From assembly GCF_013315695.1 (NCBI RefSeq), contig NZ_CP054353.1: a stretch of 64,000 bases of DNA; one strand, written 5' to 3'. Under the pieces are notes generated by a model. The model did not search any database. It was not told the DNA's origin and saw only the letters and a program-made list of their open reading frames with translations. This stretch comes from Escherichia coli (GTDB lineage Bacteria; Pseudomonadota; Gammaproteobacteria; Enterobacterales; Enterobacteriaceae). Positions 12,177 to 58,188 of this stretch are shown here, piece after piece (position 1 is the stretch's first letter; each line of letters starts with the position of its first letter). The position numbers were made by a program, and so were the translations under genes.

Positions 12177-12197
12177 AACCGCGCCAGCGGTTTTTTT
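12177..12197 (+). terminator. same terminator-like hairpin in repeat copy 2
   Basis: Identical sequence at +829. Confidence 0.5.
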
Positions 12198-12376
12198 GTG
12201 CGTACTGTATTGCCACGTCTTTTTCGCGTCAGAATTATGGCGGGGCGTACGGGGCCGACTTCGGTCGGGCCGGGTTCTTTGCTAGCCGGTACTGCGAACC
12301 TCGTACGTCTCGCCACCCACAGTTTCGCAGCTCTGGATGGTGAGTTTTCACAACTTACTAGCAAAGAGGCCACACC

Positions 12377-12598
12377 ATGGCAAACCGCAAGCAACAGCGC
12401 GCCCGCGCTGAGCGTCTTCACATCCGCAGCGAAATCAACCGCAGACTTTTCCGCGCAACACGCGTCGCGCAAATCATGCATATCAACATGCTGCATGAGC
12501 GCACGCACGCACTATCAAACCGTTACTGCGCTGCTGTCTTCAGCTATCTCGCCGAAGATCTGGCAGAACTGCAAAGCCTCATCAACCAGCACCGATAA
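12377..12598 (+). CDS. small basic protein (73 aa), repeat copy 2
   Basis: Identical to 11548-11769. Confidence 0.5.
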   Translation: MANRKQQRARAERLHIRSEINRRLFRATRVAQIMHINMLHERTHALSNRYCAAVFSYLAEDLAELQSLINQHR

Positions 12599-12666
12599 AC
12601 CACATCCGGAAGCTATCCCACACCTGCACGCGGGAGGCTTCCGCACGTCTGTTACCGGAGGTTCTC

Positions 12667-13083
12667 ATGAAGAGCGTTAAGGGACTTTCAGATATTCAGG
12701 ACTTCTTTAACTGGATGTGGGCGGTGGATCCCCTGCTGGCTTCCCGCCTGAACAACTGGCACGACTATTACCGCCGCGCCTGTAAACAGGCTGCCCGCAG
12801 CGTCACCACATACGGGGATTTCTCCTTCACCGTGGACGGTCGTTACCGCGTGGACGTGAAAGGTGATGGTGATGGACTGGGTTTATTTCACATCAACGGC
12901 ACCGACAGTACCGCCATCAGCTGGTCGTCATCAGAGATGGCGCTGGTTCTGGAAATGACAACCCACAGCGTGGCCGTGAAAGGTATATACACCGCAGAAG
13001 GTTTTATCGGCGAATACCAGCGCCTTCTCGTGCTGTACCGCGCGGCGTTTCAGGTGGCAACTGCCGGGGAGTGCGACGCATGA
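12667..13083 (+). CDS. hypothetical protein (138 aa) immediately upstream of and coupled to gene A
   Basis: ATG with GGAGG RBS; stop overlaps the A start (ATGA). Confidence 0.6.
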   Translation: MKSVKGLSDIQDFFNWMWAVDPLLASRLNNWHDYYRRACKQAARSVTTYGDFSFTVDGRYRVDVKGDGDGLGLFHINGTDSTAISWSSSEMALVLEMTTHSVAVKGIYTAEGFIGEYQRLLVLYRAAFQVATAGECDA

Positions 13084-17592: not shown

Positions 17593-17688
17593 TTTTTCTT
17601 ATGTGTTTCATCCCCATTCAGCCCAGTAACGGCGCTGGCTGAGGCCGGTTTGCACGGTGCACGAAAAACGAGGCAATTGCAGCGCGCA

Positions 17689-20887: not shown

Positions 20888-20905
20888 TGTAGCGGTGTTC
20901 TTACA
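20888..20905. promoter_or_regulatory. Ogr-type late promoter element TGT-N12-ACA (tgtagcggtgttcttaca)
   Basis: Dyad in the divergent P/O intergenic region; shares GTTCTTACAAC with the element at 41115-41132. Confidence 0.6.
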
Positions 20906-27889: not shown

Positions 27890-27896
27890 TAAAAAA

Positions 27897-27919
27897 CCCC
27901 CTCCGGCATTCGGAGGGGG
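27897..27919. other. strong GC stem-loop (ccccctccg-gcatt-cggaggggg) after the esterase gene
   Basis: 9-bp stem; A-run on the 5' side, so the T-run is on the minus strand. Confidence 0.5.
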
Positions 27920-28189
27920 AGAGAAACTAACCATTAAAAACGAATATCTATAAGCATCTCAATTCTGGCGTTTTACACCATCACACGCAATGCAAAGGAG
28001 CAATGTATGAATTTATTTCAACAGTCCATGTTGTATTTCAGTGCTGCAGTATGCGTCATATGGGTGTGATAAGGCAGACAGAACTTCCGGAACAAAAAAC
28101 AAATAAGGCAGCAGTAAGAAAAGCAGCTGGCGGTACAACTAACCGATCCTGAAATAGCCTGCCATACACAACAAACAGACGGTGTTTTT

Positions 28190-28660
28190 ATGCTGAAAAT
28201 GAACTCATTACGCGAAGCACTGACCAGCAACTGCCGGTGGTGCAAAGCCAATCCGGAAAAATTCACGGTATTCACTGAGTCCGGAGGCATTGAGACCACC
28301 GCAGAAAGACCGTCATTTCTGTATCGCTACAACCTGGTCGTTTTCATCATGGATTTCACGGAAAGCATCGACAACATCATGCTGCCGGTAATGGCGTGGC
28401 TGTACCGCAACCAGCCTGACCTGCTGCTTAATCCGGAGAAGAACAAAAGCATTAAATTTTCGACGGCCATTAACGACGATGACAGCGCCGATATCCTGCT
28501 GGAAATCCCGGTATGGGAACGCGTGATTGTACGCCGCAACGATGACGGCACGGTAACGGCAGAGCATATCGGTGAGCCACCGATAAGCCGGGCACTGGAA
28601 GCATGGCGAGTGGTCTTTGAAGACATGACATGGAAAACCGCAGAAGAGGCCGGGGCATGA
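28190..28660 (+). CDS. tail completion protein, P2 gpR-like
   Basis: 156 aa; MLKMNSLREALT start resembles P2 R; P2 gene order. Confidence 0.8.
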   Translation: MLKMNSLREALTSNCRWCKANPEKFTVFTESGGIETTAERPSFLYRYNLVVFIMDFTESIDNIMLPVMAWLYRNQPDLLLNPEKNKSIKFSTAINDDDSADILLEIPVWERVIVRRNDDGTVTAEHIGEPPISRALEAWRVVFEDMTWKTAEEAGA

Positions 28661-29292
28661 GAGACGCTCACGAACTGGATGCCATCTTTCAGGATATTCT
28701 TTCCGGCCTGTCGGCTGCTGGCATTCAGCGCACAGCAATGAACGTGGGTAAGATTATCCGGCAGCAACAGGCCAGGCGCATCAGAAACCAGGTATCCCCG
28801 GAAGGCCAGCCCTGGGAGAAACGAAAACGCCGCATAATGCGTATACAAAAAGGCGTGAAGTTTATCTGGAAAGACGGACAGGTGAGAAACCTGAAAAACT
28901 GGAGCACATCCCGGGGACGGTTCGGGCAGAAAATTACCGGCTACGATACAGACACCGGGGGTATCCGGACGTTTTACAAAGCGGATATCGAAGATTACCT
29001 GGAAATTAACACTCTGCGTGTTGGCGCGAAAACAACTCGCCCTTCCCCCATGTTTGAAAAGCTGAGAACGCCGCGCTTCATGAAAATAACCCCGGCTCCT
29101 GACGGCGTAAGCGTTGGGTTTCAGGGGCGGGCCGCGCGTATTGCCAGGGTACATCAGTTCGGAGAAGTGAGCCTGGTATCACCCGGGAACGCCACGAAAT
29201 ACCCCGTGCGCGAGCTGCTGGGCCTGAACGGGAAAGACAAACAGCAAATCACAGAAACCGTGATAGCCGGACTGGGGAAAGCGACGAAATGA
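28657..29292 (+). CDS. tail completion protein, P2 gpS-like
   Basis: ATGA-coupled to R; size and order. Confidence 0.75.
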   Translation: MRDAHELDAIFQDILSGLSAAGIQRTAMNVGKIIRQQQARRIRNQVSPEGQPWEKRKRRIMRIQKGVKFIWKDGQVRNLKNWSTSRGRFGQKITGYDTDTGGIRTFYKADIEDYLEINTLRVGAKTTRPSPMFEKLRTPRFMKITPAPDGVSVGFQGRAARIARVHQFGEVSLVSPGNATKYPVRELLGLNGKDKQQITETVIAGLGKATK

Positions 29293-29870
29293 ACATCGAG
29301 CTTATGCGACTGCTGCACAACATTGTCCGCATTGGCGTGGTCACAGAAATCAACACCGACAACTGGGAGGTTCGCGTGCAGAGCGGCGGACTGACCACCA
29401 ACTGGATCAGATGGAACTGCGGGCGGGCCGGAAAATTCAGAATCTGGATCCCGCCATCACCGGGCGAACAGGTGCTTATCCTGTGCCCCGGCGGCAACCC
29501 GGAAACCGCCGTCAGCGCGGGTAGCCTGTACAGTAATGACAACCCACCGCCGGACTCGCTGGAAAACGAAATGGTCATCACCGCACCGGACGGTGCAGTG
29601 TTTCGCTATAACGCACAGGAAAGCGCGCTGACTGCAACAGGCATTAAAACCGCAACCATCACAGCGGAAACCCGCATCACGCTGGACACGCCAAGGGTGG
29701 AATGCACGCAGCACCTGAAGGCAAAAACATTCGAGCTGACCGAAGGCGGGAAGATGACCGGTAACATCACGCACACCGGAGGAAGCCTGACCTCCAACGG
29801 CATCACGGTACACAGCCACGTACACGGCGGAGTCAGAAGCGGCGGAGACACAAGCGGAGGTCCACAGTGA
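29289..29870 (+). CDS. baseplate spike/assembly protein, P2 gpV-like
   Basis: 193 aa; order and coupling. Confidence 0.8.
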   Translation: MNIELMRLLHNIVRIGVVTEINTDNWEVRVQSGGLTTNWIRWNCGRAGKFRIWIPPSPGEQVLILCPGGNPETAVSAGSLYSNDNPPPDSLENEMVITAPDGAVFRYNAQESALTATGIKTATITAETRITLDTPRVECTQHLKAKTFELTEGGKMTGNITHTGGSLTSNGITVHSHVHGGVRSGGDTSGGPQ

Positions 29871-30235
29871 GCATTGACTACACCGGCATGAATCCGCACG
29901 GCACGGGAACAATTTCAGGGCACGAACACCTGAAGAACGCCATCATGGACATCATCATGACACCTGTCGGAACACGCGTCATGAGACGGGACTATGGCAG
30001 CCTGGTTCCCGGACTCATCGACAGCCCGATGAATGATGTAACCCGCCTTCAGTGCATGAGTGCAGCTGTAATAGCAATCAGCCGCTGGGAGCCGCGCGTG
30101 GCCGTGAGCGCCGTTGATGTGGCATGGGATAAACAGGGGCGGGCCATGCTGTCCCTGAACTGCCTGATTGTAAACACCATGGAAAAACTGGAGTTTTCTG
30201 TAGAGATGGGAGGAAAGGCGGATGCCGGCCATTGA
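29867..30235 (+). CDS. baseplate wedge protein, P2 gpW-like (gp25 fold)
   Basis: 122 aa; order and coupling. Confidence 0.8.
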   Translation: MSIDYTGMNPHGTGTISGHEHLKNAIMDIIMTPVGTRVMRRDYGSLVPGLIDSPMNDVTRLQCMSAAVIAISRWEPRVAVSAVDVAWDKQGRAMLSLNCLIVNTMEKLEFSVEMGGKADAGH

Positions 30236-31118
30236 TTTATCTGAACTGCCAAAACCGAACGTTATCGAAACGCTGGATTACGAGGTGATACTGGCAGAAA
30301 CGAAAGCATTCATCACCGGTCTTTACCCGGCAGAAATGCAGGCAGCCGTCACTGCCGCAATGACGCTGGAATCAGAACCCCTGAACATTATTGCCCAGGG
30401 CATGGCTTTTCGTGAGCTCATTATTCGCCAGAGAATCAATGACGCCGCAGGTGCCGTTTTGCTGAGCCATGCGGTATCCACAGACCTGGATCATGTTGCC
30501 GCGAACCTGAACACCATTCGCCTTGTCACCACACCTGCAACAGATACCCGTGACGCCATCATGGAAAGTGATACCGCTCTGCGTCTTCGGGCACAGTCTG
30601 CCTTTGACGGACTGAGTGTTGCCGGACCGGCAGGTGCATATGAGTATTTTGCCCGAAGTGTGAGCGGAAGCATTGCCGATGTAAGGGCGACGAGCCCATC
30701 CCCCGCCCAGGTCACCGTGGCAGTATTGTCCACTGACGGCGACGGCAGAGCTTCCGAAGACTTGATCGAAAAAGTCAGAACCGCACTGAGCGCGGAGGAC
30801 GTCCGCCCGGTGGGAGACCGTCTTACCGTAAAGAGCGCTGAAATCATTAACTACCAAATCAACGCCAGACTCTATTTTTATCCGGGACCGGAATCAGAGC
30901 CGATACTGAATGCGGCAAAAAACAACCTGGAAGCCTGGATCAGGGAGCAAAGAAAGATAGGCCGTGACGTTGCGCTTTCGGCCATCATGGCGGTACTGCA
31001 TGTTCAGGGGGTTCAGCGGGTGGAGCTGATTGAGCCAAAGCAAAACATTACCGTCAGTGATGTGCAGTCAGCCTATTGCACGTCATTCAATGTAAGCACC
31101 GGGGGAACCAATGAATAA
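30222..31118 (+). CDS. baseplate protein, P2 gpJ-like
   Basis: 298 aa; order. Confidence 0.82.
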   Translation: MPAIDLSELPKPNVIETLDYEVILAETKAFITGLYPAEMQAAVTAAMTLESEPLNIIAQGMAFRELIIRQRINDAAGAVLLSHAVSTDLDHVAANLNTIRLVTTPATDTRDAIMESDTALRLRAQSAFDGLSVAGPAGAYEYFARSVSGSIADVRATSPSPAQVTVAVLSTDGDGRASEDLIEKVRTALSAEDVRPVGDRLTVKSAEIINYQINARLYFYPGPESEPILNAAKNNLEAWIREQRKIGRDVALSAIMAVLHVQGVQRVELIEPKQNITVSDVQSAYCTSFNVSTGGTNE

Positions 31119-31644
31119 GACATCATTGCTGCCCCCTTCCGCCACAGAATTCATACGCAAAGCAGAGCGTGGCGGTGAACGGTTAATGGCGCTGCCCGTC
31201 GGTATTCGCCATCTCTGGGATCCTGACTCATGCCCCGTGCAGCTGCTGCCTTATCTGGCATGGGCGTTGTCGGTTGACAGATGGGATCAGAACTGGCCGG
31301 AGGAAACCAAGCGGCAGGTCATTCGCGATTCATGGGATATTCACCGGCATAAAGGCACCATCAAAGCCATTCGCCGGGTTGTTGAGCCGTTTGGTTATGT
31401 GATCAGGGTAACCGAATGGTGGGAAACCAACGAAACACCAGGAACATTCCGGCTGGATATCGGCGTACTGGATATCGGGATCACCGAAGAGATGTACAGG
31501 GAAGTCGAACGCCTGGTGGCCGACGCGCGCCCGGTCAGTCGCCACCTGATCGGCCTGAACATCATTCAGGACGTACCGGGTTACATGTACACCGGCGGCA
31601 TCGCCTACGACGGCGACATCATTACAATTTATCCGGCAGAGTAG
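31111..31644 (+). CDS. baseplate protein, P2 gpI-like
   Basis: 177 aa; order. Confidence 0.8.
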   Translation: MNKTSLLPPSATEFIRKAERGGERLMALPVGIRHLWDPDSCPVQLLPYLAWALSVDRWDQNWPEETKRQVIRDSWDIHRHKGTIKAIRRVVEPFGYVIRVTEWWETNETPGTFRLDIGVLDIGITEEMYREVERLVADARPVSRHLIGLNIIQDVPGYMYTGGIAYDGDIITIYPAE

Positions 31645-31650
31645 AGCACT

Positions 31651-34632
31651 ATGAGCGTGAAATTTAAAACTGTGATCACTAAAAGCGGCGCAGCAAAAAT
31701 CGCCGCAGCGACCAGCGCATCAGGAAAAAAAGTCAACATCACGCACATGGCCGTTGGTGATGGTGACGGTAATTTACCTACCCCCTCCTCATCCCAGAAA
31801 AAACTTATTCGTGAGGTCTGGCGCGGCACACCAAATAAGGTCGTTCAGGACAGCAAAAAACCAAACCAGATTATTGCTGAGCTGGTCATCCCTCCTGATG
31901 CCGGTGGATTCTGGATGCGTGAAATTGGGTTGTTTGATGACTCGGGAACGCTGATCGCTGTTGCCAATATGGCCGAAAGCTACAAACCGCTGCTGTCTGA
32001 AGGTTCCGGCAGGGCGATGACATGCCGCATGGTTATTGTCATCAGCGATGTAAGCGCGGTGAAGGTGTCTGTGGACACCACGACGATTATGGCAACCCAG
32101 GATTACGTTGATGATAAAATCGCTGAGCATGAGCAGTCGCGCCGACATCCCGATGCCACCCTGACCCAGAAAGGCTTCACCCAACTGGACAGCTCGGTAA
32201 ACAGTAGCAGTGAGGCGAAAGCTGCAACACCAAAAGCAGTAAAAACACTGAACGATACAAAGGCCCCGCTGAACAGCCCTAAGCTGACCGGAACACCGAC
32301 TGCCCCCACGGCAGCAAAAGGGGTCAACAACACCCAGATAGCGACAACCGCTTACGTGATGGCAGCAATCGCTAATTTAGTGGACTCATCACCGGACGCC
32401 CTGAATACGCTGAACGAGCTGGCGCAGGCGCTGGGAGATGACCCAAACTTTTCTGCCACCATGACAAAGGCACTGGCCGGAAAGCAACCCCTTGACGCCA
32501 CGCTGACAGCAATAGCAGCACTGGCTACAGCAGCTGATAAACTGCCTTACTTCACCGGAAGCGACAAGGCAGCACTGACAGCGCTGACGAAAGTTGGCCG
32601 GGACATTCTCGGGAAGGCATCCGTCAGTGAGGTCATTACATACCTGGGCCTCACTAACACCATCACGCAGGCATCGGGCGCACTTCAGAAAGCACAGAAC
32701 GGTAAAGACATCCCGAATAAAGCAACTTTTCTGACGAACATTGGCGTTACCAGCCAGACATTCATGAAGCACAACGGAGAACTGCCCGAAGATGCGGACC
32801 TGAATACCTATGGCCCGGTTGCGGCAACACTGGGAACATGGGGAAAAGCCTCATCAACCAATGCAACGATCGCTAAAAATTTCCCGGAAGAGAGCGCTGT
32901 GGGGATACTGGAAGTCCTTACTGGCGGATCATTTAACGGAACGCAAAGGTACACCTGCCGCAGCGGGAATATTTATGTTCGGACCCTGACCGCCAGATGG
33001 AACGGTACAAACGGACCATGGGGAGTGTGGCGAAACGTACAGATGGCGACCAGGCCACTTAGCACAACCATTGATCTGAATACCCTGGGGAATGCAGGTG
33101 ATATCGGCATATGGAGGAACAGTAACGCCAGTATTGCTTCATTCACCAGAAACTACCCCGAAGAAGGCAATAATGCCCAGGGGATTCTCGAGCTTATGGA
33201 AGGGGGTGCGTATGGGCGAACCCAGCGCTACACGACCATTCTCGGGAACGTGTATATTCGCACCCTTACAACAACATGGGACGCGTCCGCGCCGAAATGG
33301 GGAGGGTGGCACAGAGTCGGACATCAGTCTGACGGGGCATATCGTGATGATGACCTGAACACCATGAAAACGCCGGGCATTTACAGTGTGACCAACAAGG
33401 CAAAAAACGGCCCCATGAAGAGCGGAAATGAAAATTTGCTGGGGATCCTTGAAGTCATAAGGCGACTGGATGGCAGAACCTTTGTGCAGCGTTACACCAC
33501 AGCCGGAACGGCGACACTGACCCGGGGGCGATCTTTTGAAAGAACCTTCAGCGGTGACGCCTGGACAGAATGGCGGGAAATCTATAACTCATTCAGTCTT
33601 GCCCAGAGTCTGGGGATGGGTCGTGCGGTAGCAAGACTATCCAGCCTGGACTGGCAGACCTACGACTTTGTACCTGGCAGTTTGATCACCGTTCGGCTGG
33701 ATGACATGACCAACATTCCTGACAGCATGGACTGGGGGGTTATCGATGGCAACATAATAAATATTGCCGTTGGCCCGAGTGAGGATTCAGGTTCTGGCAG
33801 GTCAGTAATGGTATGGCGCGGTACAGTAAGTAAAGCGAACTACCGTTTCTTTATGGCACGAATTGCCGGGAATCCGGGAAATCGCACGATCACAACAAGA
33901 CGAGTACCAATTATTGATGAAGCCCAGACGTGGGGGGCAAAACAGATATTCAGTTCTGGCCTTTCAGGTGAGTTATCCGGCAACGCATCAACTGCAACAA
34001 AACTTAAAACCGCTCGCAAGATTAACGGCGTTGCGTTTGATGGTTCGGCAAATATTGAAGCGTTTCCCCCCGGCGTTCCACTGCCGTGGCCATCAGATAC
34101 ACCACCTGCTGGCTATGCCATTATGCAGGGGCAAACCTTCGACAAGGCAAAATACCCGAAACTTGCCATTGCCTACCCGTCAGGAAAGCTTCCTGATATG
34201 CGGGGATGGACAATCAAGGGGAAACCCGCCAGCGGTCGGGCGGTATTATCGCAGGAGCAGGACGGTATTAAATCGCATACCCATACGGCCAGCGTGTCAA
34301 AGACCGATCTGGGTTCGAAAACGACCAGTTCATTTAATTATGGAACCAAAACAACCAGCACAGGCGGGAGACACGAGCATGATGTTCCGCTCAAGTATCA
34401 GAACGGTGGCGGTGTAAACTTTGACTGGCTGGACGGAGCATCAAACAGTGGTGTTATTGCATACGGTAAAGTACCTGCCGCCGGTGAACACACCCACACC
34501 GTGGCAATCGGGGAGCACACTCATACCGTCCCATTGGGATCACACGGGCACGGCGTGACCGTTAACGCCACAGGCAACACGGAAAACACCGTGAAAAACA
34601 TTGCGTTTAACTACATCGTGAGGCTTGCATAA
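31651..34632 (+). CDS. tail fiber protein, P2 gpH-like N-terminus with long divergent C-terminal domain
   Basis: 993 aa; N-terminus [23 protein letters not shown] resembles P2 H; C-terminal HxH repeats ([24 protein letters not shown]). Confidence 0.85.
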
Positions 34633-35378
34633 TGACCTTTACAATGGAAGACGAAGCCAGAATGCTTCACGTATTTCATATTCACCCGGAAACCAGCGAA
34701 CTGACTGGAGAAAGCGACGTATATATCCCACCGTATACCGGGTTGCCCGCAGGCTGTACGACGACCGAGCCGCCACATATCCCGGAAGGGTTCGTGGCGC
34801 TTTTTGATGACGTGCGCCAGCGCTGGGAGCTTGCAGAAGATCACCGGGGAAAAGTGGTGTGGAATACGGCATCCGGGGATGAGATCGCAATTACGGAAAT
34901 CGGACCGCTACCTGAAAATACAACAACGGCAGCCCCGTCAACAGCCGCAGACAAGTTTATTGATGGCGAGTGGAGAGAAGATCGCAGTCTGGCAATCAGC
35001 ATAAAAAATAACGAGATAAACGAATGGCGAAGCACCATGGAAGCCGCGAATTACGTTTTCACGTTCAATGGTCGTAGCTGGGATTACGGAAAAGAAACCC
35101 AGTCCCGGCTGGATCCATCAGTGACAGCCGCAAAGTCCGGGTTATTACCGGAGGGATTTTTCTGGACGGATGCCGATAACAACGATATCCCGGTTACCGC
35201 AGATGAATTGATCGCACTGAGCAATGCTGCATCTGCTGCAATGTTTACCAAGGGAATGGAAATACATATCCGGCAACGGGAAATGAAAAAAGCCATAGAG
35301 GAATTACAGGACCCCGGCGAAATCATGGCATACCCGGTGGGATGGAAAACAGATACCGGAGACGGTGCCGGTGAGTGA
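34632..35378 (+). CDS. tail fiber assembly chaperone (gpG/Tfa-like)
   Basis: 248 aa directly after and overlapping the fiber gene. Confidence 0.7.
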   Translation: MTFTMEDEARMLHVFHIHPETSELTGESDVYIPPYTGLPAGCTTTEPPHIPEGFVALFDDVRQRWELAEDHRGKVVWNTASGDEIAITEIGPLPENTTTAAPSTAADKFIDGEWREDRSLAISIKNNEINEWRSTMEAANYVFTFNGRSWDYGKETQSRLDPSVTAAKSGLLPEGFFWTDADNNDIPVTADELIALSNAASAAMFTKGMEIHIRQREMKKAIEELQDPGEIMAYPVGWKTDTGDGAGE

Positions 35379-35383
35379 AAGTT

Positions 35384-35408
35384 AAAACGCCCGACTGACG
35401 GGCGTTTT
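35384..35408. terminator. bidirectional terminator between convergent G and U (aaaacgcccg-actgac-gggcgtttt)
   Basis: Perfect 6-bp GC stem flanked by A-run and T-run. Confidence 0.7.
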
Positions 35409-35410
35409 AA

Positions 35411-35887
35411 TTATCTTACCAGCGCCAGCGCAGAACTGATGCCGGACTTAATATTATTTGTCAGATCTCCCAGAGATGAAGACTGAAGACGTTCGCGGAG
35501 ATCTTCATTCACACGCTGAAAGGTCACCGTAAACTCAATCTTCCGCGCCTTGCCATAGCGATCAAGCTCTGAACGCGTGGTATTCAGAGCGGTAATAACG
35601 TACATACCGTAAATCTGCCCGACACCATCAATCAGCGGCCATGGACGTCCAGCATACGCCTGAGTTGTCAGCGCGGTAAGTGAGACTTCACCGCCTGTAA
35701 TTTCCGGGTAGAGAAGACCGGAAAGCGTGATGGTATCGTCACCCGCGCCGATATACTGCCAGCTGGCCGAGCGATTGATTCGCTCATTCTTCACGTGGCG
35801 CCAGTTACGGGACTGCTGTATTTGTTGGTGTGGCAGCGTGCTTAACTGAAAAACAAACATGCCGTAAATCATCATCATAATCACCAC
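35411..35887 (-). CDS. tail protein, P2 gpU-like
   Basis: About 155 aa; last gene of the FI-FII-E-T-U order; exact start among several Met codons unresolved. Confidence 0.75.
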   Translation of the reverse strand: MVIMMMIYGMFVFQLSTLPHQQIQQSRNWRHVKNERINRSASWQYIGAGDDTITLSGLLYPEITGGEVSLTALTTQAYAGRPWPLIDGVGQIYGMYVITALNTTRSELDRYGKARKIEFTVTFQRVNEDLRERLQSSSLGDLTNNIKSGISSALALVR

Positions 35888-35889
35888 TC

Positions 35890-38748
35890 CTAATCACGAT
35901 CGCGGAAGCTGTTCATCCCGGCGGATTGTCTGCGAATTTCTTCCCGTACAGCCTCCCCCACCATTCTGGCAAGGTCGCGCGGGTTCTGCGTCGCCACGTT
36001 GTGAAGATGAACGTGGATTTCCCCACCGAACACAGACGACGGTTCAGGAGAGCGCGAAGCCTCCCGGGTAGCCGGGGAGACTGGCGCCCACTGCTTAACC
36101 TCCACGGAACGGGAAGCATCCCGGGAGACCTCCGGAGGCACAGGCGAAACCGGAGGCATAACCGGTAGTCCTGGCGCAACAGTCGGCTCATTCCACTGCC
36201 CGCGAACAGCCAGCGCACGGGGGAGGTTTTTAAACACGATATCGCCGGGACCGATACGCTTGCGGGCTTCATGAAGCATGCCCGACGTATTACCCTCGAT
36301 ACCTTTAAGCCTGCGAAGAACGGCGCTGTTACCGCTGGTTATGCCGGGGGGATTGCTGGTTTTACCGTCATTCTGTGGATTACCATTCCCGTTGTTATTA
36401 TTGCTGACAGGAGCGGCCGGAGTGGGTACCCAGGACTTCTGAACCATTTTTTTCTGAACAGGGTCCCACTCCCACATAACCGGAGCCTTTGCAACTGCCT
36501 CAGCACGATTTTTCGCCCGCTCAACTTCAGAAGGGAGCACGCCGAGTTTTTCCAGCACCCATGCCAGGCCGTCCATCAACGCCTGAAGAGGAGTAAGCGC
36601 AAGCGATATCGCCCCGCTGAGCACGCGACCAAAAGTTTCCCCGACCGAGGCACACCGTTCAAGAGATTCATGGCTGGTCTGAACAGGTGTGAGTAACCGC
36701 CTGAACCAGTCATACACCGTGGACACCGCACCCGATACCAGATCAAACAGCGGCGCAAACTGAGCAACACCTTCACGAACAGGCGCAAGGCCAGCCCACA
36801 GCGCCCGGAATGTTCCGAGCATAAAAGCCTTAACCTGTTCCCAGTGACGCCATATGAGCAGCGCTCCACCGGCAAGGGCAGCAACCACGAGACCAACAGG
36901 ACTGAGAAGACCGGCAAGCGCCCCGCCCAGCACTGAAACCGCACCGGATACCATCCCCCACAGTGCCGGAAGGCCAGACAGGCGAAGGGCAAGACCACCA
37001 ACGCCAGTTGCAACAGAGGAAAACCCGCCACCAAGAAGCGCAGAGCCAAGCTGAAGTTTTGCAAAAATACCGGTCAGCACCCCGGAGGTCAGGGACAACG
37101 CCCCAAGGGCTGTCGTGGCCGCAAGAACACCACCGGCAACAATCGCCAGAGTACGCACCAGTTGCGGATTATCCTGAACCCATCCTCTGAGCCGTTCACC
37201 CCATGATACCGCTACCTGAACAAGTTCGCGGAGGTCATCGGTGACAAGGGCAACGACATCACTGCGTATACCGGAGAAGACACCAGACAGGCGATCGGCA
37301 TCACCGCCAAGGTTATCCCGCAGAACATCACCCATACGCCGGGCGGTTCCCTGCACCTGCCCCATACGGTCAGACACCGTTGCCAGCGAGCGGAGAAAAT
37401 CCGGGATCTGATCAACGGCCAGATCTTCGATGGGTGTGCCGAACAGCGCTATCGCCGCATTGGCTCGTTCCGCAGGATCCTGAATCTTCAGCAGCCCGGC
37501 AGCCGTTCGCTGCATTGCCTCGCGAGCAGCCGCGCCTCCGCTGGCAATCGCTGACAACATTTTTTCCGCATTAAGGCCAATCAGCCCATAAGCCTCAACG
37601 CTTGCTTTGGACATATCCGAGCCACGAATACTGAATTCCTTGACGGCATCGCCGGTTTTATCCAGGGCGAATTTCCCCTGCTGCGCCATGCTGACAAGCA
37701 GCGTCATGGTTTCAGAGCCGGAGAGCCCCATATTGCGGAAATGCGTGGAATACTCATGCAGAATTTCAGGAAGTTCGCCGCGCATTTCGGCGGACATTTT
37801 CTGCATGCCTGCCGCCATCAGGTCCACGGCCTCACCTGCATTTGCAGCGAGACCGTTTTTCAGCATGATGCCGGCCGCCTGAACCTGTTCAGCCACATTA
37901 CCGCCGGTGACCTGAGCAAGATCGATTGCCTGCCGTGTCACCCTCTCTAGTTCTTCAGTCCCTACAGTACCCAGTGCGCCAAGCGTGCTTTGCGCCGCAG
38001 CTGCCGCTTCGGAAATCATCGCGATATCCGTAGCCGCACCTGACGCACGGATGTTCTGAATCATACGGCTGTAGCGCTGGCCGTCTTCTGCGCTGCCTCC
38101 ACTCTGTGCCGCAATGAGCGCACCCTGCCGTTGCTCTTCAACAACAGGTGCAACCGCACGTCCGGCGGCGTACAGACCAGCACTGCCCGCTGCCATGGCA
38201 AGCGCACCGCGCTGGCTGAGTTTACCGGCGATATCCTGAACACGATCGTAACGTTGTTGTGCCTGCGTGACGCGCGCAAGCTGAGCCTGCTGGCGCTCAA
38301 GCTGATCGTTGTATTCCTGCGTTCGCCTGATTGCTTCTTCAGTGGTGCGGTTACTTCCGTCCGCCCGTATACCGTGAGACTCCAGCTCACGACCGGCTTC
38401 CCGTAGCCGGGACTGGTGAAGGGCGTAAACGGTATTAAGACGCTCAATCTTTGCAGTCAGTGAGCGGATAGCTTCCTGCTGTTTTTCCGTCAGTGTCGTG
38501 CCAGTACGCTGGACCTCCAGGAGGCGCTGAAGTCGCCCACGCGCCTCGTTCAGGCTGTTTTCAGTCGAGGCAACCTGCTGACGGGCACGGGAAAACGCAT
38601 CACTGCTTCGCTGGAGTGACTTAAGAGCGTTCTGCGTGGAGGAAAGAGATTCGGAAAGCGCGCCGGTCATTTCCCGGGCGCGCCTGACGGGTTGGGTGAG
38701 ACGGTCGACCGCAGTGAGGGCTACACGTATCTGGAGATTATTACTCAT
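35890..38748 (-). CDS. tail tape measure protein, P2 gpT-like
   Basis: 952 aa from ATG (MSNNLQIRV); Ala/Gly-rich helical protein; ORF-track frame extends to 38802. Confidence 0.85.
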   Translation of the reverse strand: MSNNLQIRVALTAVDRLTQPVRRAREMTGALSESLSSTQNALKSLQRSSDAFSRARQQVASTENSLNEARGRLQRLLEVQRTGTTLTEKQQEAIRSLTAKIERLNTVYALHQSRLREAGRELESHGIRADGSNRTTEEAIRRTQEYNDQLERQQAQLARVTQAQQRYDRVQDIAGKLSQRGALAMAAGSAGLYAAGRAVAPVVEEQRQGALIAAQSGGSAEDGQRYSRMIQNIRASGAATDIAMISEAAAAAQSTLGALGTVGTEELERVTRQAIDLAQVTGGNVAEQVQAAGIMLKNGLAANAGEAVDLMAAGMQKMSAEMRGELPEILHEYSTHFRNMGLSGSETMTLLVSMAQQGKFALDKTGDAVKEFSIRGSDMSKASVEAYGLIGLNAEKMLSAIASGGAAAREAMQRTAAGLLKIQDPAERANAAIALFGTPIEDLAVDQIPDFLRSLATVSDRMGQVQGTARRMGDVLRDNLGGDADRLSGVFSGIRSDVVALVTDDLRELVQVAVSWGERLRGWVQDNPQLVRTLAIVAGGVLAATTALGALSLTSGVLTGIFAKLQLGSALLGGGFSSVATGVGGLALRLSGLPALWGMVSGAVSVLGGALAGLLSPVGLVVAALAGGALLIWRHWEQVKAFMLGTFRALWAGLAPVREGVAQFAPLFDLVSGAVSTVYDWFRRLLTPVQTSHESLERCASVGETFGRVLSGAISLALTPLQALMDGLAWVLEKLGVLPSEVERAKNRAEAVAKAPVMWEWDPVQKKMVQKSWVPTPAAPVSNNNNGNGNPQNDGKTSNPPGITSGNSAVLRRLKGIEGNTSGMLHEARKRIGPGDIVFKNLPRALAVRGQWNEPTVAPGLPVMPPVSPVPPEVSRDASRSVEVKQWAPVSPATREASRSPEPSSVFGGEIHVHLHNVATQNPRDLARMVGEAVREEIRRQSAGMNSFRDRD

Positions 38749-39288
38749 CGTTATGATTCCCGGATCTGGCAGCCGCCCGCTCTCGCCAGGCAACAACCTC
38801 ACCAGGACTCATACCGAATATCTCTGCGGGCGACCAGTTAAAGACAACAGCGATATCAGCGACAAGCTCTTCGATATCGTCAAACAGGAGACGAATTACA
38901 TCACACCTGTATTCGTCTTTTTCTTGCCGGGCAAGGCCTTCGGCGAGAAAAAATACGTTGCCGCCGTGGAAAGCGCCCCGAAATCCTCCGTGCGCATGGT
39001 CGACAGTTCCGCTTCAGTAAGGCGGGGCTCTGTAACACGGCTGAGATAAACGCACATCGCGTTAAAGTTCAGGCTGTACAGGTGAGCCAGAGACAGACCA
39101 CGCAGTGAACCACTCTGACGGGCACGTTCGCCAATCTTCACATGTGTAATAACCTGTTCACCACGGACAACCGGAACGGTTAACTCAATGGGCTCACCGT
39201 TATAGGCAACCTCATTACCATCAGCAACATCAAAGTTGTCGACGTTATCAGCACCGGCAACCAGTACTTCGTTTTGTTTTTTTGACAT
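38741..39288 (-). CDS. predicted E+E' -1 frameshift product of the tail chaperone
   Basis: The -1 frame from the TTTTTTC site (plus 38947-38953) stays open to a TAA that overlaps the tape-measure ATG (ATGAGTAA). Confidence 0.5.
38896..39288 (-). CDS. tail assembly chaperone, P2 gpE-like (frame 0 product)
   Basis: 130 aa; lies between tail tube and tape measure; contains slippery heptamer T TTT TTC. Confidence 0.7.
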   Translation of the reverse strand: MSKKQNEVLVAGADNVDNFDVADGNEVAYNGEPIELTVPVVRGEQVITHVKIGERARQSGSLRGLSLAHLYSLNFNAMCVYLSRVTEPRLTEAELSTMRTEDFGALSTAATYFFSPKALPGKKKTNTGVM

Positions 39289-39333
39289 TGTGAAATTCTC
39301 CTGGCGGCCACACGACCGCCGTCAGTCAGTTAA

Positions 39334-39846
39334 TCAGCCAAGTCCCAGCATGGAGCGGGTGCGATCAGGCAGCACATCCTTGCCATCAACGCGCCAGATG
39401 AAGTTCAGCACGTCGATTTCAATAACATCGCTGTTATCAACGCTGAGCTTGTACCAGGTGCATTTCATCGCGTAGGTGTGTTCGGTATCTTCACCCTGTT
39501 TGGCCTCGCCCTTGTCGATTTCGACAATGCGACCACGGGCTTCAATATCGACGTACTCAATCCCTTCTTCGGAATAGTATTCACCCGAGAAGCGCACGCG
39601 TACCGCATCAATGCCAGCGGCATATTTGGCAAAGATGTGACGATCCATACCGCCAACCGCAAAGGAGAGATCCAGCGCACCATCATCAAGACCGAGATCC
39701 ACCGCCGCAGAGCCTGGCATACCCGCACCACGATATGCTTCCGTCTTGCGGGTCAGTTTCGGTGGGGTGAAGGAGGTCACCTTACCCAGTTTGTTGTCAC
39801 CGTCCACAAAGACGGTAAACACACGAAGTTTTTTTGGTACGGCCAT
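39334..39846 (-). CDS. tail tube protein, P2 gpFII-like
   Basis: 170 aa directly after the sheath gene. Confidence 0.82.
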   Translation of the reverse strand: MAVPKKLRVFTVFVDGDNKLGKVTSFTPPKLTRKTEAYRGAGMPGSAAVDLGLDDGALDLSFAVGGMDRHIFAKYAAGIDAVRVRFSGEYYSEEGIEYVDIEARGRIVEIDKGEAKQGEDTEHTYAMKCTWYKLSVDNSDVIEIDVLNFIWRVDGKDVLPDRTRSMLGLG

Positions 39847-41039
39847 CAGCTACCTCCCAGAGATGCAAAAGCAGAGCCAAAGAACTCGTCGGTAAACGTC
39901 TGATAGAGTTCCATGCATTCCATCGGTGGTACGGGCGTGTATTTGTAGCGAATGCGCACAATGCCCTGACGAAGACTGGTCGTGTTGTTGTCGACAATAT
40001 CGAACCAGCATTCCGCCCCAATGAGTTTTCCGGCCGTGACCAGGGAATCCAGTTTCGCCTTGATGGCACTTACTGCATCTTTCGCATTGGAAGGTGTCAG
40101 AGGCGAATCCACCACCTGAAGCTGCGCCTCTGCGATACTGTCAGCCAGTTGTTGCGCCGTGCGGGTGTACACCTCAAAGATATACTCCGCTGTTTCCGGC
40201 GTACGGTTCCCCCAGAAACGGAAGGAGCCGTCACCCTGGTGAATAATCGTGGTCACCTCACTGCTGTTCAGCGTGTTGGCATCGCTGTTTTCATCCTGAA
40301 GCGACCAGGAAACCGACGCAGAGATCCCGAGAACATTCTTCACAGGGATGTTTGAAAGAGAGCGATGCCAGCCCTGTTCGTGGTCGATTCGGGCACGAAG
40401 ACCGCACGCATACGCCGCAGCCGGGAAAGTTTCACTTTTACCGGACACGGGGTTGAACGCCGTGAAATCAGGCCACAGGAGCATGATTTCACGCCCGGAA
40501 ATCTTTTTGCGGAATGCAATGGCATCGGACGGTTTTGTGCATGCCGGACAGCCGGAATACGCAAAAGCTCGCATTTTGCCCGCAATCGTCACCAGTGCCG
40601 CCGTAACGGCATCGGACTCAAGACCGGGCGCTGCCAGGATACGCGGACGACAGCCAATCCCCTCCATCTGTTCAGCGACCAGAAGGGCCTGCATCCCCGT
40701 GTAACTGCCATCAGACTCCACAGTACCAATAACAAGCTGGTCCTGTGTCTTCTGGTCTTCCGCCTCCTTCGCTTCGGCAACACGCACGACGATAACGCGC
40801 GTGCTGACCTGATCGGAGATAGCCTTAAGGGATTTGTAGAGCGTCCCCTTTGTGCCAGCCTTACCCAGAACATTATTGACTCGTGTTAACAGCACCGGCG
40901 TGTCAAGCGGGAACTGCTCTTCGTCAGCATCATCTGCAACAGCAATAAGCCCAATGACGCTGGAATCAACGTCATTAATTGCCGTCACCAGATCGGTGTT
41001 TTCCCTGACGCGCACACCGTGAAATCGTGTTTCAGCCAT
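39846..41039 (-). CDS. tail sheath protein, P2 gpFI-like
   Basis: 397 aa; similarity to recalled P2 FI (WPDF, GLRARIDHEQGWH, FRFWGNRT, YTRTAQ). Confidence 0.88.
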   Translation of the reverse strand: MAETRFHGVRVRENTDLVTAINDVDSSVIGLIAVADDADEEQFPLDTPVLLTRVNNVLGKAGTKGTLYKSLKAISDQVSTRVIVVRVAEAKEAEDQKTQDQLVIGTVESDGSYTGMQALLVAEQMEGIGCRPRILAAPGLESDAVTAALVTIAGKMRAFAYSGCPACTKPSDAIAFRKKISGREIMLLWPDFTAFNPVSGKSETFPAAAYACGLRARIDHEQGWHRSLSNIPVKNVLGISASVSWSLQDENSDANTLNSSEVTTIIHQGDGSFRFWGNRTPETAEYIFEVYTRTAQQLADSIAEAQLQVVDSPLTPSNAKDAVSAIKAKLDSLVTAGKLIGAECWFDIVDNNTTSLRQGIVRIRYKYTPVPPMECMELYQTFTDEFFGSAFASLGGS

Positions 41040-41114
41040 ACGATTCACCATCAGTTGTGTTTATGTTCGCCGGAATCATCCATGACTGGCGCGCAGATCT
41101 CACGCGTTGGGGGG

Positions 41115-41132
41115 TGTGAGGGGGTTCTTACA
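41115..41132. promoter_or_regulatory. Ogr-type late promoter element TGT-N12-ACA (tgtgagggggttcttaca)
   Basis: Dyad between divergent FI and D; shares GTTCTTACAAC with 20888-20905. Confidence 0.6.
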
Positions 41133-41191
41133 ACAGAACCGAACGGAAACGACCGGAACTGCGTGGGATGATACGTATACGGGAGGGCTGC

Positions 41192-42337
41192 ATGAACATC
41201 ACTGAATCACTGACACTTCACATCAACAGTGCACTGGATACCGCAGAAGACACAGTGCGGGTACCGGATTTCAGTATCACACTGGAAGGGCGGGATGCCA
41301 GCCTGAAAAACATCACGCAGCGCATCATGCGTCTCACCATGACAGACAACAGGGGATTTGAGGCCGACAGGGTGACACTGGAAATCGACGACGCTGACGG
41401 TGAGGTGGTTCTTCCGGAACGCGGCACCCGATTATCGCTGACCATGGGATGGAAAGGGGGAAGCCTGACAAACAAAGGGACGTTTGTTGTGGATGAAGTG
41501 GCGCACGACGGACCACCGGATAAGCTCACCATCTCCGCGAACAGCGCGGATTTTCGCGAAGAGTTTAACGTGAAACGCGAAGTCTCCTGGCATGACGTGA
41601 CGGTGGAGCGCGTGGTGTCTGCCATTGCCCACCGTTACGGACTGAAGGCACAAATCAGCGAGATGTTGATGGATATTGAAATCGACCATGCAGACCAGAC
41701 AGAGGAAAGTGATATGTCATTCCTCACTCGCATGGCCGACATGCTGGGTGCAATAGCCACCGTAAAAAACGGGTGTCTGCTGTTCATTCTGCCGGGAGGC
41801 GGCGTCACCGCCAGCGGTCGCGCCCTCCCCTCATTCGCCCTGACCCGCTCTGACGGAGACGGCCACCGCTTTCGCATTGCTGACAGAAACGCCTATACCG
41901 GAGTGAAGGCCCACTGGCTGGATTTAAAGTTCGGTCAGAAGAAGGCCGTGAACGTGAAAAAGCGAAACGCGCAAACCACGAAGAAGCCGGAGAAAAGCAG
42001 TGCGCGGGAAGGTGGTTACATGGAAGGCGCAGAGGGTAACGTGTATGTACTGAGAAAAACCTACCCGAACGAAGAAGCCGCGCGTCGTGCAGCTGCCGCA
42101 CGCTGGCAGCAACTTCAGCGGGGCGCAGCGGAATTCAGTATCACGCTGGCGCGCGGACGTGCTGACCTGTATCCGGAGATGCACGGCACGGTATCCGGAT
42201 TCAAGAGCGACATTGACAACCAGGACTGGATTATTTCGCGCATTGAGCACGTCATCGACGACAGCGGCTTCACCACCAGACTGGAGCTGGAAGCAAAAAT
42301 CGCAGACTGGATAGCAGAGAGTAACACGACTGGCTAG
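41192..42337 (+). CDS. tail protein / late control gene D, P2 gpD-like
   Basis: 381 aa from ATG with GGGAGGG RBS; adjacent to ogr. Confidence 0.82.
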   Translation: MNITESLTLHINSALDTAEDTVRVPDFSITLEGRDASLKNITQRIMRLTMTDNRGFEADRVTLEIDDADGEVVLPERGTRLSLTMGWKGGSLTNKGTFVVDEVAHDGPPDKLTISANSADFREEFNVKREVSWHDVTVERVVSAIAHRYGLKAQISEMLMDIEIDHADQTEESDMSFLTRMADMLGAIATVKNGCLLFILPGGGVTASGRALPSFALTRSDGDGHRFRIADRNAYTGVKAHWLDLKFGQKKAVNVKKRNAQTTKKPEKSSAREGGYMEGAEGNVYVLRKTYPNEEAARRAAAARWQQLQRGAAEFSITLARGRADLYPEMHGTVSGFKSDIDNQDWIISRIEHVIDDSGFTTRLELEAKIADWIAESNTTG

Positions 42338-42378
42338 AATGAGCGCGAGCCCACCCCGTTTCAGCCAGGGGGACCATC

Positions 42379-42681
42379 ATGCATCCTTGCCCATACTGCG
42401 GAGCAAGCACCCGCACCAGAACAAGCCGCAACGCCAACGACACAGGAACAATCAGGGAGAAATACTATCAGTGCAACAACATTGAATGCAGCGCAACCTT
42501 TGTGACGCACGAGTTTGTCGTGAGAACCGTATGCCGTCCGCAACCCACCGAAGAACGGGGAATCATCCCCACAGACGCTTTCAAATCATGCCACCGGGGA
42601 AGGGAACAACTCAGCCTCCCCCTGGGCGATTGCTCCTCCCAGTCAAAAACTGTACATTACGCGCGGGTGCCTTTCGGCTGA
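42379..42681 (+). CDS. ogr: late transcription activator Ogr (zinc finger)
   Basis: MHPCPYCGAS...YYQCNNIECSATF: CxxC-N22-CxxxxC motif; N-terminal 70 aa resemble P2 Ogr as recalled. Confidence 0.8.
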   Translation: MHPCPYCGASTRTRTSRNANDTGTIREKYYQCNNIECSATFVTHEFVVRTVCRPQPTEERGIIPTDAFKSCHRGREQLSLPLGDCSSQSKTVHYARVPFG

Positions 42682-42812
42682 CGGCTGGAAGGATTACCTG
42701 AAGGCCGGATGTGGAAAGGCCCCGAGTCAAACATATTGTTTAACCCGAGGCCCTAACCATCCAACCGTGACAAGTGGAAGGTTAGCGCCTCTTTGAAAAA
42801 GGAGCAAGCGCT

Positions 42813-42953
42813 ATGCCGCAAAAAACGATCATCGTGAGCATTTTATGCTTAACCATGTTGTTGACCGTCTGGATGATACACCGTTCGCCGTGTGAATTCA
42901 GACTTAACATCATGTGGTCAGAATTTGCGGCGTTCTTGCAGTGTAAACCGTAA
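42813..42953 (+). CDS. Hok/Gef-family type I toxin peptide, HokA-like (46 aa)
   Basis: Below ORF-track cutoff; AAGGAG RBS; MPQKTIIVSILCLTMLLTVWMIHRSPCEFRLNIMWSEFAAFLQCKP resembles E. coli HokA as recalled (MPQK..., WMI, LCE, AAFL.CK). Confidence 0.65.
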   Translation: MPQKTIIVSILCLTMLLTVWMIHRSPCEFRLNIMWSEFAAFLQCKP

Positions 42954-42962
42954 GAAACCGCA

Positions 42963-42995
42963 GCGGGGGTGAAAGCCCCCGCTATCCGGTTGTTA
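42963..42995 (+). terminator. hairpin after the hok-like gene (gcggggg-tgaaa-gcccccgc)
   Basis: 7-bp GC stem 10 bp after the stop. Confidence 0.5.
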
Positions 42996-43047
42996 AAGGT
43001 TCAGTCGAAAGTCGCACCCTTGCATGCAAGTCACAAAGAAAAAACAA

Positions 43048-43080
43048 AGCCCGTAGCGTAAAAACTGCGGGCTTTTTTGT
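43048..43080. terminator. bidirectional terminator hairpin (agcccg...cgggct with flanking A/T runs)
   Basis: Stem-loop with T6 downstream and A-run upstream. Confidence 0.55.
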
Positions 43081-43149
43081 TTCAAAGATGGACGTTATAT
43101 GGACACCTGAAAATAAATTCCTTTTATTTTCAATTAATTAACATAATGC

Positions 43150-43165
43150 AAAAAGCGCCCGCAGG
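43150..43165. repeat. attR core: 16-bp direct repeat aaaaagcgcccgcagg, part of the serS terminator hairpin
   Basis: Identical to 4323-4338; continues as gcgcccgcaggcgc hairpin plus T-run on the serS strand. Confidence 0.65.
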
Positions 43166-43193
43166 CGCTTTTTAGATTCAGAAAAATTGGGTA

Positions 43194-44507
<1,314 letters not shown>

Positions 44508-58100: not shown

Positions 58101-58188
58101 GGTGAGGTGTCCGAGTGGCTGAAGGAGCACGCCTGGAAAGTGTGTATACGGCAACGTATCGGGGGTTCGAATCCCCCCCTCACCGCCA
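58101..58188 (+). tRNA. serW: tRNA-Ser (anticodon GGA)
   Basis: 88 nt GGTGAGGTGTCCGAGTGG...GGTTCGAATCCCCCCCTCACCGCCA with long variable arm; anticodon loop cctGGAaag. Confidence 0.92.

Follow-up and report, generated by a model that had tools for sequence, protein, structure and literature searches.

An inverted FI-to-U tail block in a P88-type prophage of Escherichia coli, with a predicted Ogr site common to FI and D

In bacteriophage P2 the tail genes FI, FII, E/E', T and U are transcribed from the promoter pF in an operon that ends with D and is followed by ogr. FI to U run co-directionally with V to G, for which there is a separate promoter, pV, and D, which overlaps U, lacks a promoter of its own. 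The RefSeq record of P2 lists a -1 frameshift for E+E', a promoter for ogr in the gap between D and ogr and, at 3057-3087, one single activator binding site for the divergent promoters pO and pP. The centre of this site is 55.5 bp away from both mapped starts, at 3016 on the minus strand and 3127 on the plus strand, and weak -10 hexamers are found at nucleotides 35-40 from the dyad edges. Late promoters of this kind are recognized by a partial dyad TGT-N12-ACA with its centre about 55 bp ahead of the start, by a cognate Ogr/Delta zinc-finger activator that the phage encodes, and by the dependence of their transcription on Ogr and on the alpha subunit of RNA polymerase. For phage Smp131, PP' and PO' were likewise placed on one stretch of 18 bp that is read both ways (PMC3931495). 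A different layout is found in phage P88 (Xuanwuvirus P88, NC_026014), with V W J I H G on the plus strand, U T E' E FII FI on the minus strand, and D and ogr, followed by hok, again on the plus strand.

The prophage described here is contained in a window of 64,000 nucleotides, the whole stretch of E. coli DNA that was analysed (contig NZ_CP054353.1 of assembly GCF_013315695.1). It has the same tail genes as the F operon of P2, in the same internal order, but FI to U are inverted, D heads a unit of its own and a pV-type site was not found. In gene order and strands it is identical to P88. We consider it likely that this is a P88-type tail module that arose by a single ancestral inversion, and that one Ogr dyad drives both FI and D.

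Gene order of the tail module and the G/U junction

Gene calls and strands were obtained from the list of open reading frames, from PHROGs and from the RefSeq/PGAP annotation of the 99.9%-identical chromosome of E. coli MSB1_4I. All three agree that FI-FII-E-T-U lie on the minus strand and keep the internal order of P2, as an earlier note on this DNA had claimed. In the prophage V-W-J-I-H-G are encoded on the plus strand, U-T-E'-E-FII-FI on the minus strand (35411-41039) and D-ogr on the plus strand. The reported convergence of G and U and divergence of FI and D thus stand, and the P2 record confirms that its own genes are co-directional, with D in the last position of the F operon.

The gene in the G position (34632-35378, plus strand; phrog_1807 and phrog_105, tail-fibre assembly or fibre-like, a DUF4376 protein according to PGAP) is the final one of the rightward series O...S-V-W-J-I-H-G. 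On the minus strand it is followed by the gpU tail protein (35411-35878; phrog_76, E-value 5e-69; PGAP), the gpT tape measure protein (35890-38748; phrog_28, E-value 5e-124; PGAP), the E' extension of gpE (38741-38896), an open reading frame in the -1 frame relative to E, and gpE itself (38896-39288; phrog_103; a 'GpE family' CDS in PGAP). A slippery heptamer T_TTT_TTC at 38953-38947, in the frame of E, predicts a -1 frameshift into E', as is annotated for P2. The block is completed by the gpFII tail tube (39334-39846; phrog_55; 'major tail tube protein' in PGAP) and the gpFI tail sheath (39846-41039; phrog_23, E-value 2e-113), and D, a late control D family tail protein, follows on the plus strand (41192-42337; phrog_52, E-value 1e-153; PGAP), here as the first gene in its unit. 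With homologues of FI, FII, E/E', T, U and D all present in P2-like internal order (PHROG E-values of 1e-29 to 1e-153, and PGAP names), the window carries a P2-like (Peduoviridae) contractile-tail module that is normal for a P88-type member.

The gap between G and U comprises 32 bp and no gene. It is occupied by a symmetric, GC-rich hairpin at 35383-35409, AAAACGCCCG-ACTGA-CGGGCGTTTT, that is flanked by a run of four A on one side and of four T on the other and is a predicted bidirectional intrinsic terminator. Its folding energies are -32.7 kcal/mol on the plus strand and -27.5 kcal/mol on the minus strand (z-scores of -7.1 and -6.6), and none of 200 shuffled sequences folded as well. The structure at the place of the terminator that the earlier note had assigned to G and U in common is strong and symmetric, but its U runs measure just 4 nt per side and a simple terminator consensus scan did not list it. 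Both the transcript from FI to U and the long rightward transcript ending with G would stop at this hairpin. Note that in related loci hairpins are often found directly after U, with a sequence that is not conserved among them.

In spite of the identical layout, the proteins of P88 and of the window are only 62-76% identical, and there is almost no DNA similarity at the level of megablast. In P88, furthermore, G and U are separated by an invertible fibre segment and a gene for a DNA invertase, where the window has only the 32-bp gap with the predicted terminator, and P88 is devoid of the DUF6645 insertion that precedes R in the window. The ICTV criterion for a genus is roughly at least 70% genome-wide nucleotide identity with the type phage. 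As a megablast search against phage records covers at most 6% of the query and the sheath is 74% identical to that of P88 in amino acid sequence, the prophage is a relative, not a member, of the genus Xuanwuvirus in the strict ICTV sense.

Distribution and phylogeny of the inverted block

Relatives were identified by searches at the protein level, since a megablast search of all phage records with 15 kb of this DNA had returned only small fragments of tail-fibre and hok sequence. A scan of GTDB species genomes with a gpD profile yielded 80 loci, and in 41 of these (L006-L046) FI is divergent from D and U lies on the opposite strand, while loci L048-L085 retain the order of P2. The inverted arrangement spans more than 20 genera of Enterobacterales, and an identical one is carried by P88, Klebsiella phage 3LV2017 (Reginaelenavirus) and Enterobacter phage phiT5282H (Novemvirus), representatives of three ICTV genera. 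The latter two come from other genera and hosts, and have the same FI/D dyad position and sheath and gpD proteins 62-72% identical to those of the window. In E. coli, 15 further chromosomes show the layout with about 88% identity from U to D. The earlier note had implied that the orientation is unusual and had stated beforehand that its occurrence as a trait of a lineage would speak against this; the synteny comparison revealed precisely such a trait.

With phiCTX as the root, neighbor-joining trees of gpD and of FI unite the 45 inverted loci including the window in one clade, to which P88 also belongs; in the gpD tree this clade also takes in L047, a deleted remnant. P2, phiCTX, Fels-2 and Burkholderia KS5 all keep the co-directional order, which we therefore regard as ancestral, and the single clade of inverted loci in both trees points to one old inversion. 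In the ancestor of the clade, a segment consisting of the F promoter region and FI-FII-E/E'-T-U would have been inverted once, D and ogr would have stayed in place, and the layout would have been fixed ever since. Note that Burkholderia P2-like phages and Fels-2, which might have been expected to share the inversion, do not have it. The orientation of the block compared with P2 can serve as a marker of the clade, by which P2-like prophages are sorted into two lineages.

Two other origins of the orientation were considered, and we attach next to no credence to either. The inversion might be recent and specific to this strain, or a mere artefact of assembly, and in line with this DNA matches to phages of the collection cover at most 6% of the query and just one complete E. 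coli genome is at least 99% identical. The arrangement is nevertheless present in the more distant E. coli chromosomes described above, and orientation matches the phylogeny of gpD and FI perfectly. An error of assembly or orientation is excluded because 45 phage genomes and assemblies that are independent of each other share the layout. The block might also be a switchable segment, flipped by a site-specific invertase in the manner of the Gin, Cin and Pin tail-fibre switches; a DNA invertase is indeed encoded next to the tail-fibre genes in P88 and Fels-2, in P88 right at the G/U junction. Such an enzyme is not encoded between G and U in the prophage, however, orientation is constant in all 45 members of the clade, and D would be left without a promoter whenever the block assumed the orientation of P2. 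The inverted repeats at both junctions that the earlier note had proposed to look for did not emerge either: from 34400 to 42500 the only pairs besides the G/U hairpin were short, of a kind expected by chance and located within genes, the best of them 14-28 nt long and 70-93% complementary. None of these join the junctions, and there is therefore no sign that a recombination site or invertase substrate was ever present.

The layout as such is already known, resting on deposited annotated genomes, and the finding is ordinary, with little import beyond correct annotation. Neither the inversion nor a promoter between FI and D was found to be described explicitly in papers on P88, Citrobacter phiSM, Burkholderia P2-like phages, the Xenorhabdus tailocin or the phylogeny of P2.

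A dyad between FI and D

The gap between FI and D contains exactly one perfect match to TGT-N12-ACA, the Ogr-type dyad TGTGAGGGGGTTCTTACA at 41115-41132, with its centre at 41123.5; the earlier note had correctly counted one such element here and none upstream of V or R, where we saw none within 300 nt either. In its bare form the pattern occurs at chance frequency, with 12 matches in the whole window versus 15.7 expected. The significance of the FI/D dyad derives instead from the 12-mer GTTCTTACAACA, which is common only to this site and the one between P and O (two matches versus 0.34 expected), and from conservation, as 41 of the 45 related loci have T[GC]T-N12-ACA at the aligned position. 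The left half-site varies between TGT and TCT, and the strict pattern is absent in four of the 45. Note that these loci are relatives of each other, and that counts of this kind overrate how many of the observations are independent.

On both sides of the dyad, a -10-like hexamer GATGAT is located exactly 35-40 nt from the dyad edge. The one at 41075-41080 on the minus strand is the predicted -10 element of FI, with a predicted start at about 41068 and a -35-like GTGAGA at 41098-41103; a hexamer nAnnnT at offset 35/36 is seen on this side in 36 of the 45 loci and [GA]TG[AT] at offset 12-15 in 35. Its counterpart on the plus strand is part of a predicted extended -10 element of D, TG-G-GATGAT at 41164-41172, with a predicted start at about 41179 and a Shine-Dalgarno sequence GGGAGGG at 41181-41187. 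Here the nAnnnT hexamer is retained at offset 35/36 in 38 of the 45 loci and the TG at offset 32-33 in 29, and a conserved -35 element was not found among them. A sigma-70 consensus scan from 27500 to 43200 was uninformative, as chance alone would give 11 matches and the only one obtained, at 35508, is antisense within U.

This arrangement copies the geometry of pP and pO in P2 but serves FI and D, with starts that are predicted here and mapped in P2. In contrast to the P2 pair, the D side of the window has the extended -10 TG and the FI side the -35-like GTGA. The distance rule from dyad to start reproduces the starts of pO and pP in P2 exactly and places that of pF at 17625, versus 17626-17628 in the annotation. 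In P88 the hexamer geometry is as in the window. We propose that the palindromic dyad bound by Ogr is that of the former F promoter, now placed between FI and D, and that it would serve both, as the P2 site serves pP and pO: Ogr bound at 41115-41132 would be about 55.5 bp upstream of both the leftward start of FI-FII-E-T-U and the rightward start of D. What drives D had been left open by the earlier note, but one dyad for two divergent late promoters has precedents in P2 and in Smp131. On the basis of these signals, annotations should most likely show D as the first gene of a separate unit that depends on Ogr. The resulting model, with its two starts and one dyad, is testable and extends the principle of the shared site to a second locus.

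D might instead be expressed independently of the shared dyad. Its transcript could start at an extended -10 promoter that needs no activator, or it could come from the G operon and read through the F block on the antisense strand. We consider such independence improbable, although less so than the alternative origins of the inversion. The frequent extended -10 TG and the lack of a conserved -35 on the D side are compatible with the former, and the short U tracts of the G/U hairpin make some read-through conceivable. The latter would require 5.8 kb of antisense transcription past the -32.7 kcal/mol hairpin, though, and an activator-independent promoter does not account for a D-side hexamer held in most loci at a fixed distance from the dyad, the very distance of the mapped promoters pO, pP and pF of P2. 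The hexamers themselves, GATGAT, GATCCT and AACCAT, are poor sigma-70 -10 elements that are typical of activator-dependent promoters. Activation of D through the shared dyad is thus favored, but with the extended -10 TG conserved to this degree a part of D activity might be independent of Ogr.

The P/O site, the late regulon and ogr

The only other Ogr-type dyad of the prophage is situated at 20888-20905 in the divergent P/O gap and contains GTTCTTACAACA. It is accompanied at offset 35/36 by -10-like hexamers, TACTCT for the leftward direction and CATGAT for the rightward one, and starts are predicted near 20841 on the minus strand and 20952 on the plus strand. The extended form (G/T)T(G/C)T-N12-ACAACA has exactly two sites each in the window, in P88, where both have the TCT half-site, and in phiT5282H, and in each case the P/O gap contains one of them and the FI/D gap the other. 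Upstream of R or V, searches of the prophage with the strict pattern, with one mismatch and with spacings of N11-13 retrieved only the near-matches dismissed below, and no Ogr site was found upstream of R or V in five genomes of the clade. O to G therefore probably constitute a single operon.

It is conceivable, and we suggest it tentatively, that the whole P88-type clade runs its late regulon from just two bidirectional Ogr sites, P/O and FI/D, and lacks a pV of the P2 type. If so, a single pO transcript of about 14 kb would have to carry the capsid, lysis, R-S and V-to-G genes, and in this prophage the DUF6645 insertion with its hairpin would also lie in its path. On this reading, what the inversion achieved would be a second back-to-back Ogr unit and a shorter distance between ogr and a promoter activated by Ogr. 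Such a regulatory economy was not described in the literature that we searched, nor do we know of a description.

Downstream of D, ogr (42379-42681, plus strand) encodes a late activator with a CX2C-X24-CX4C motif, as read from the translation (phrog_603; 'ogr/Delta-like zinc finger family protein' in PGAP). The spacer of 24 residues compares with 22 quoted for Ogr of P2 (PMC3931495). The gene would be reached by read-through from the D start and also appears to keep a promoter of its own at the end of D, for which a -10-like TAGAAT overlapping the D stop codon (42335-42340, plus strand) is a candidate. Across the loci of the clade the short D-ogr gap keeps this element as TAGAAT, CATAAT, TAAAAT or TATAAT, and the P2 record annotates an ogr promoter in the same place.

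Two near-matches at 28063 and 28065 (GGTGTGATAAGGCAGACAGA) were considered as a promoter ahead of R or V and dismissed, as they have a wrong spacing or half-site and lie inside a degenerate DUF1378 pseudogene. In strain NCTC9112 the DUF1378 gene is intact.

Gene map and tail module of the prophage

The region is 99.9% identical over 7.4 kb to the chromosome of E. coli MSB1_4I (NZ_LR898874), where RefSeq annotates a P2-like prophage adjoining serS. As evidenced by the ORF map and by PHROG searches, all gene names assigned in the earlier note are correct. The plus strand carries R, S, V, W, J, I and H (28190-34632) and a fibre-assembly-like gene in the G position (34632-35378). These are followed on the minus strand by the F block, consisting of U (35411-35878), T (35890-38748), E' (38741-38896), E (38896-39288), FII (39334-39846) and FI (39846-41039), and on the plus strand again by D (41192-42337), an ogr/Delta-like zinc-finger gene (42379-42681) and a hok/gef-family toxin gene (42813-42953), which lies 3' of ogr at the right end of the prophage and is likewise present in P88. 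The map agrees with the claim that the F block is reversed relative to P2, with FI and D divergent and G and U convergent; in the P2 record the same genes are indeed all co-directional, with D closing the F operon.

The tail module is of bona fide P2 type. A canonical -1 slippery heptamer, T_TTT_TTC, is found in the E frame at 38953-38947 on the minus strand, about 50 nt 5' of the E stop codon, and the E' ORF (38741-38896), which uses the -1 frame, extends over the start of T; by its sequence this is the predicted, conserved E/E+E' tail-chaperone frameshift of P2. Note that the prophage directly adjoins serS with no tRNA gene beside it, the sole tRNA gene in the window (tRNA-Ser GGA, 58101-58188) being 15 kb away, and that three terminator-like hairpins lie between hok/gef and serS (42961-43174). 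The early region (9403-13083) holds an orphan/type II-like DNA methyltransferase gene (9403-10347) and two neighbouring regulator-like paralogs (10745-11851 and 11838-12680) that match identical PHROGs and so may stem from a tandem duplication; a phrog_3237-type sequence is present twice, at 11838 and 12667.

Spread and origin of the inverted F block

By sheath protein the closest cultured phages are of the P88 type, with 74% identity. The P88 genome has exactly the layout of this prophage, V...G (+), U T E' E FII FI (-), and D, ogr and hok (+), and the inverted order is shared by Klebsiella phage 3LV2017 (Reginaelenavirus) and Enterobacter phage phiT5282H (Novemvirus), while P2, phiCTX, Fels-2 and Burkholderia KS5 retain the co-directional one. 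A gpD profile search of one genome per GTDB species yielded 80 loci, around which FI, FII, U, J and ogr were placed by local tblastn. In 41 of these (L006-L046) FI diverges from D and U is on the opposite strand; their hosts are Serratia, Citrobacter, Edwardsiella, Erwinia, Pantoea, Enterobacter, Klebsiella, Kosakonia, Brenneria, Raoultella, Yokenella, Rouxiella, Providencia, Photorhabdus, Xenorhabdus, Hafnia, Morganella, Yersinia and others. Loci L048-L085 have the P2 gene order. The remaining L047 (Providencia rettgeri RB151, NZ_CP017671) is a remnant of the inverted type, in which U, on the other strand, lies about 1.3 kb upstream of D, and neither FI nor FII was detected; most of its F block was apparently lost by deletion.

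Neighbor-joining trees built for gpD and for FI, with phiCTX, itself of P2 order, as the root, placed all 45 inverted sequences in one clade and the P2-order sequences in another. The simplest reading is that one ancient inversion would define a large Enterobacterales lineage of Peduoviridae. That the inversion is recent or artefactual, or the work of an invertase switch, is effectively excluded: the same layout across the clade rules out mis-assembly, a search for inverted repeats linking the two ends of the F block, as the earlier note had proposed, found none, and no invertase gene lies in the G/U junction of this prophage. The special status which that note implied for the inversion is lost, as the same layout in relatives makes it a lineage trait, the outcome named there as refuting. 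It is already known as such, since annotated genomes that have been public for years show it clearly; our literature search found no paper explicitly treating the inversion or an FI/D bidirectional promoter. By gene order and phylogeny the prophage belongs to the P88-type clade, and because at the nucleotide level it resembles phage records only in fragments, it is judged not to be a Xuanwuvirus in the strict sense.

The 32-bp gap between G and U is a symmetric hairpin, AAAACGCCCG-ACTGA-CGGGCGTTTT, at 35383-35409. The bidirectional terminator proposed here finds support in folding energies of -32.7 and -27.5 kcal/mol for the two strands, far better than in shuffled controls (z-scores -7.1 and -6.6), but the U tracts are only 4 nt long and a simple consensus terminator scan did not report it, so that it stands as a prediction, albeit a well-supported one. 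Many relatives carry a GC-rich hairpin of differing sequence directly 3' of U. The junction is a variable slot across phages: in P88 (25416-27564 of that genome) it houses a DNA invertase along with an alternative pair of fibre and fibre-assembly genes, in 3LV2017 and phiT5282H it spans 130-155 bp, and here it holds the hairpin only.

A proposed two-way late promoter between FI and D

How D is driven had been left as an open problem, to which the P2 promoters pP and pO and the geometry of the FI/D gap offer an answer. The P2 RefSeq entry has one "activator binding site; pO, pP promoters" (3057-3087), flanked by mapped starts at 3016 (-) and 3127 (+), and the centre of the partial dyad TGT-N12-CCA within it (3063-3080) is 55.5 bp from either start. 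In Smp131, PP' and PO' were likewise placed on one identical 18-bp element (PMC3931495). A spacing rule derived from the pO/pP dyad returns both P2 starts exactly and puts pF at 17625, compared with the annotated 17626-17628.

As noted earlier, a single Ogr-type TGT-N12-ACA dyad lies between FI and D (41115-41132). The bare motif is not significant, with 12 matches in the window and 15.7 expected. The 12-mer GTTCTTACAACA, however, occurs twice (0.34 expected), in this site and in that of the P/O gap (20888-20905), and nowhere else in the window. The extended form (G/T)T(G/C)T-N12-ACAACA is confined to the two divergent gaps, P/O and FI/D, in the window, in P88 and in phiT5282H alike. On either side of the FI/D dyad, GATGAT stands at offset 35-40 from the dyad edge (41167-41172 on the plus and 41080-41075 on the minus strand). 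The spacing rule predicts starts at 41179 for D, 13 nt before the ATG with GGGAGGG in between, and at 41068 for FI, 29 nt before the ATG at 41039.

When the gaps between FI and D in all 45 inverted loci were aligned and anchored on the dyad, T[GC]T-N12-ACA was at the aligned position in 41, an nAnnnT hexamer began at offset 35 or 36 in 38 (D side) and 36 (FI side), and a -35-like [GA]TG[AT] occupied offset 12-15 on the FI side in 35, counts that are not independent, as the sequences are related. The gap varies from 101 to 177 bp while the dyad-to-hexamer distances are constant, as functional constraint predicts. On these features the FI/D region would be a pP/pO-like control region of the Ogr-dependent class. 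The Ogr site of the former F promoter, a palindrome, would have been carried along by the inversion and would now act both ways, on FI and on D, like pP/pO, and we consider it likely that D and FI are driven in this manner. The main rival, an Ogr-independent extended -10 promoter or read-through into D, could draw on the D-side TG found at offset 32-33 in 29 of the 45 related loci; we regard it as improbable. The model of two sites and two-way late promoters is a modest, testable addition.

The O-to-G genes and the D-ogr gap

The absence of an Ogr site upstream of R or V holds in the window, P88, 3LV2017, phiT5282H and E. coli NCTC9112. In the clade genomes compared S and V overlap and R directly follows the spanin genes with no non-coding gap, which points to one O-to-G operon transcribed from pO. 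In this prophage an insert of low GC content, about 0.47 (25952-28189), interrupts the middle of that expected operon and places a 645-aa DUF6645 gene (phrog_143, unknown function) between the lysis (spanin) genes and R. The hairpin 3' of this gene (27897-27919) may let rightward transcription pass, as its T run is on the minus strand only. The 270-bp AT-rich gap that follows is strain-specific and contains a decayed small DUF1378 gene; NCTC9112 has a diverged DUF6645 gene and an intact DUF1378 gene in the same slot. PADLOC defence models gave no match on the insert.

D and ogr are 41 bp apart, and all across the clade (L001-L046) a conserved -10-like hexamer overlaps or closely follows the D stop codon, as TAGAAT here (42335-42340) and as CATAAT, TAAAAT or TATAAT in relatives. 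This hexamer probably marks a promoter of ogr itself, and as P2 has its annotated ogr promoter in the same gap, the D-ogr relationship would match that of P2 except that D here would have its own start. The Ogr homologue has 100 aa, compared with 72 aa for P2 Ogr, and combines a CX2C-X24-CX4C finger with a long C-terminal tail.
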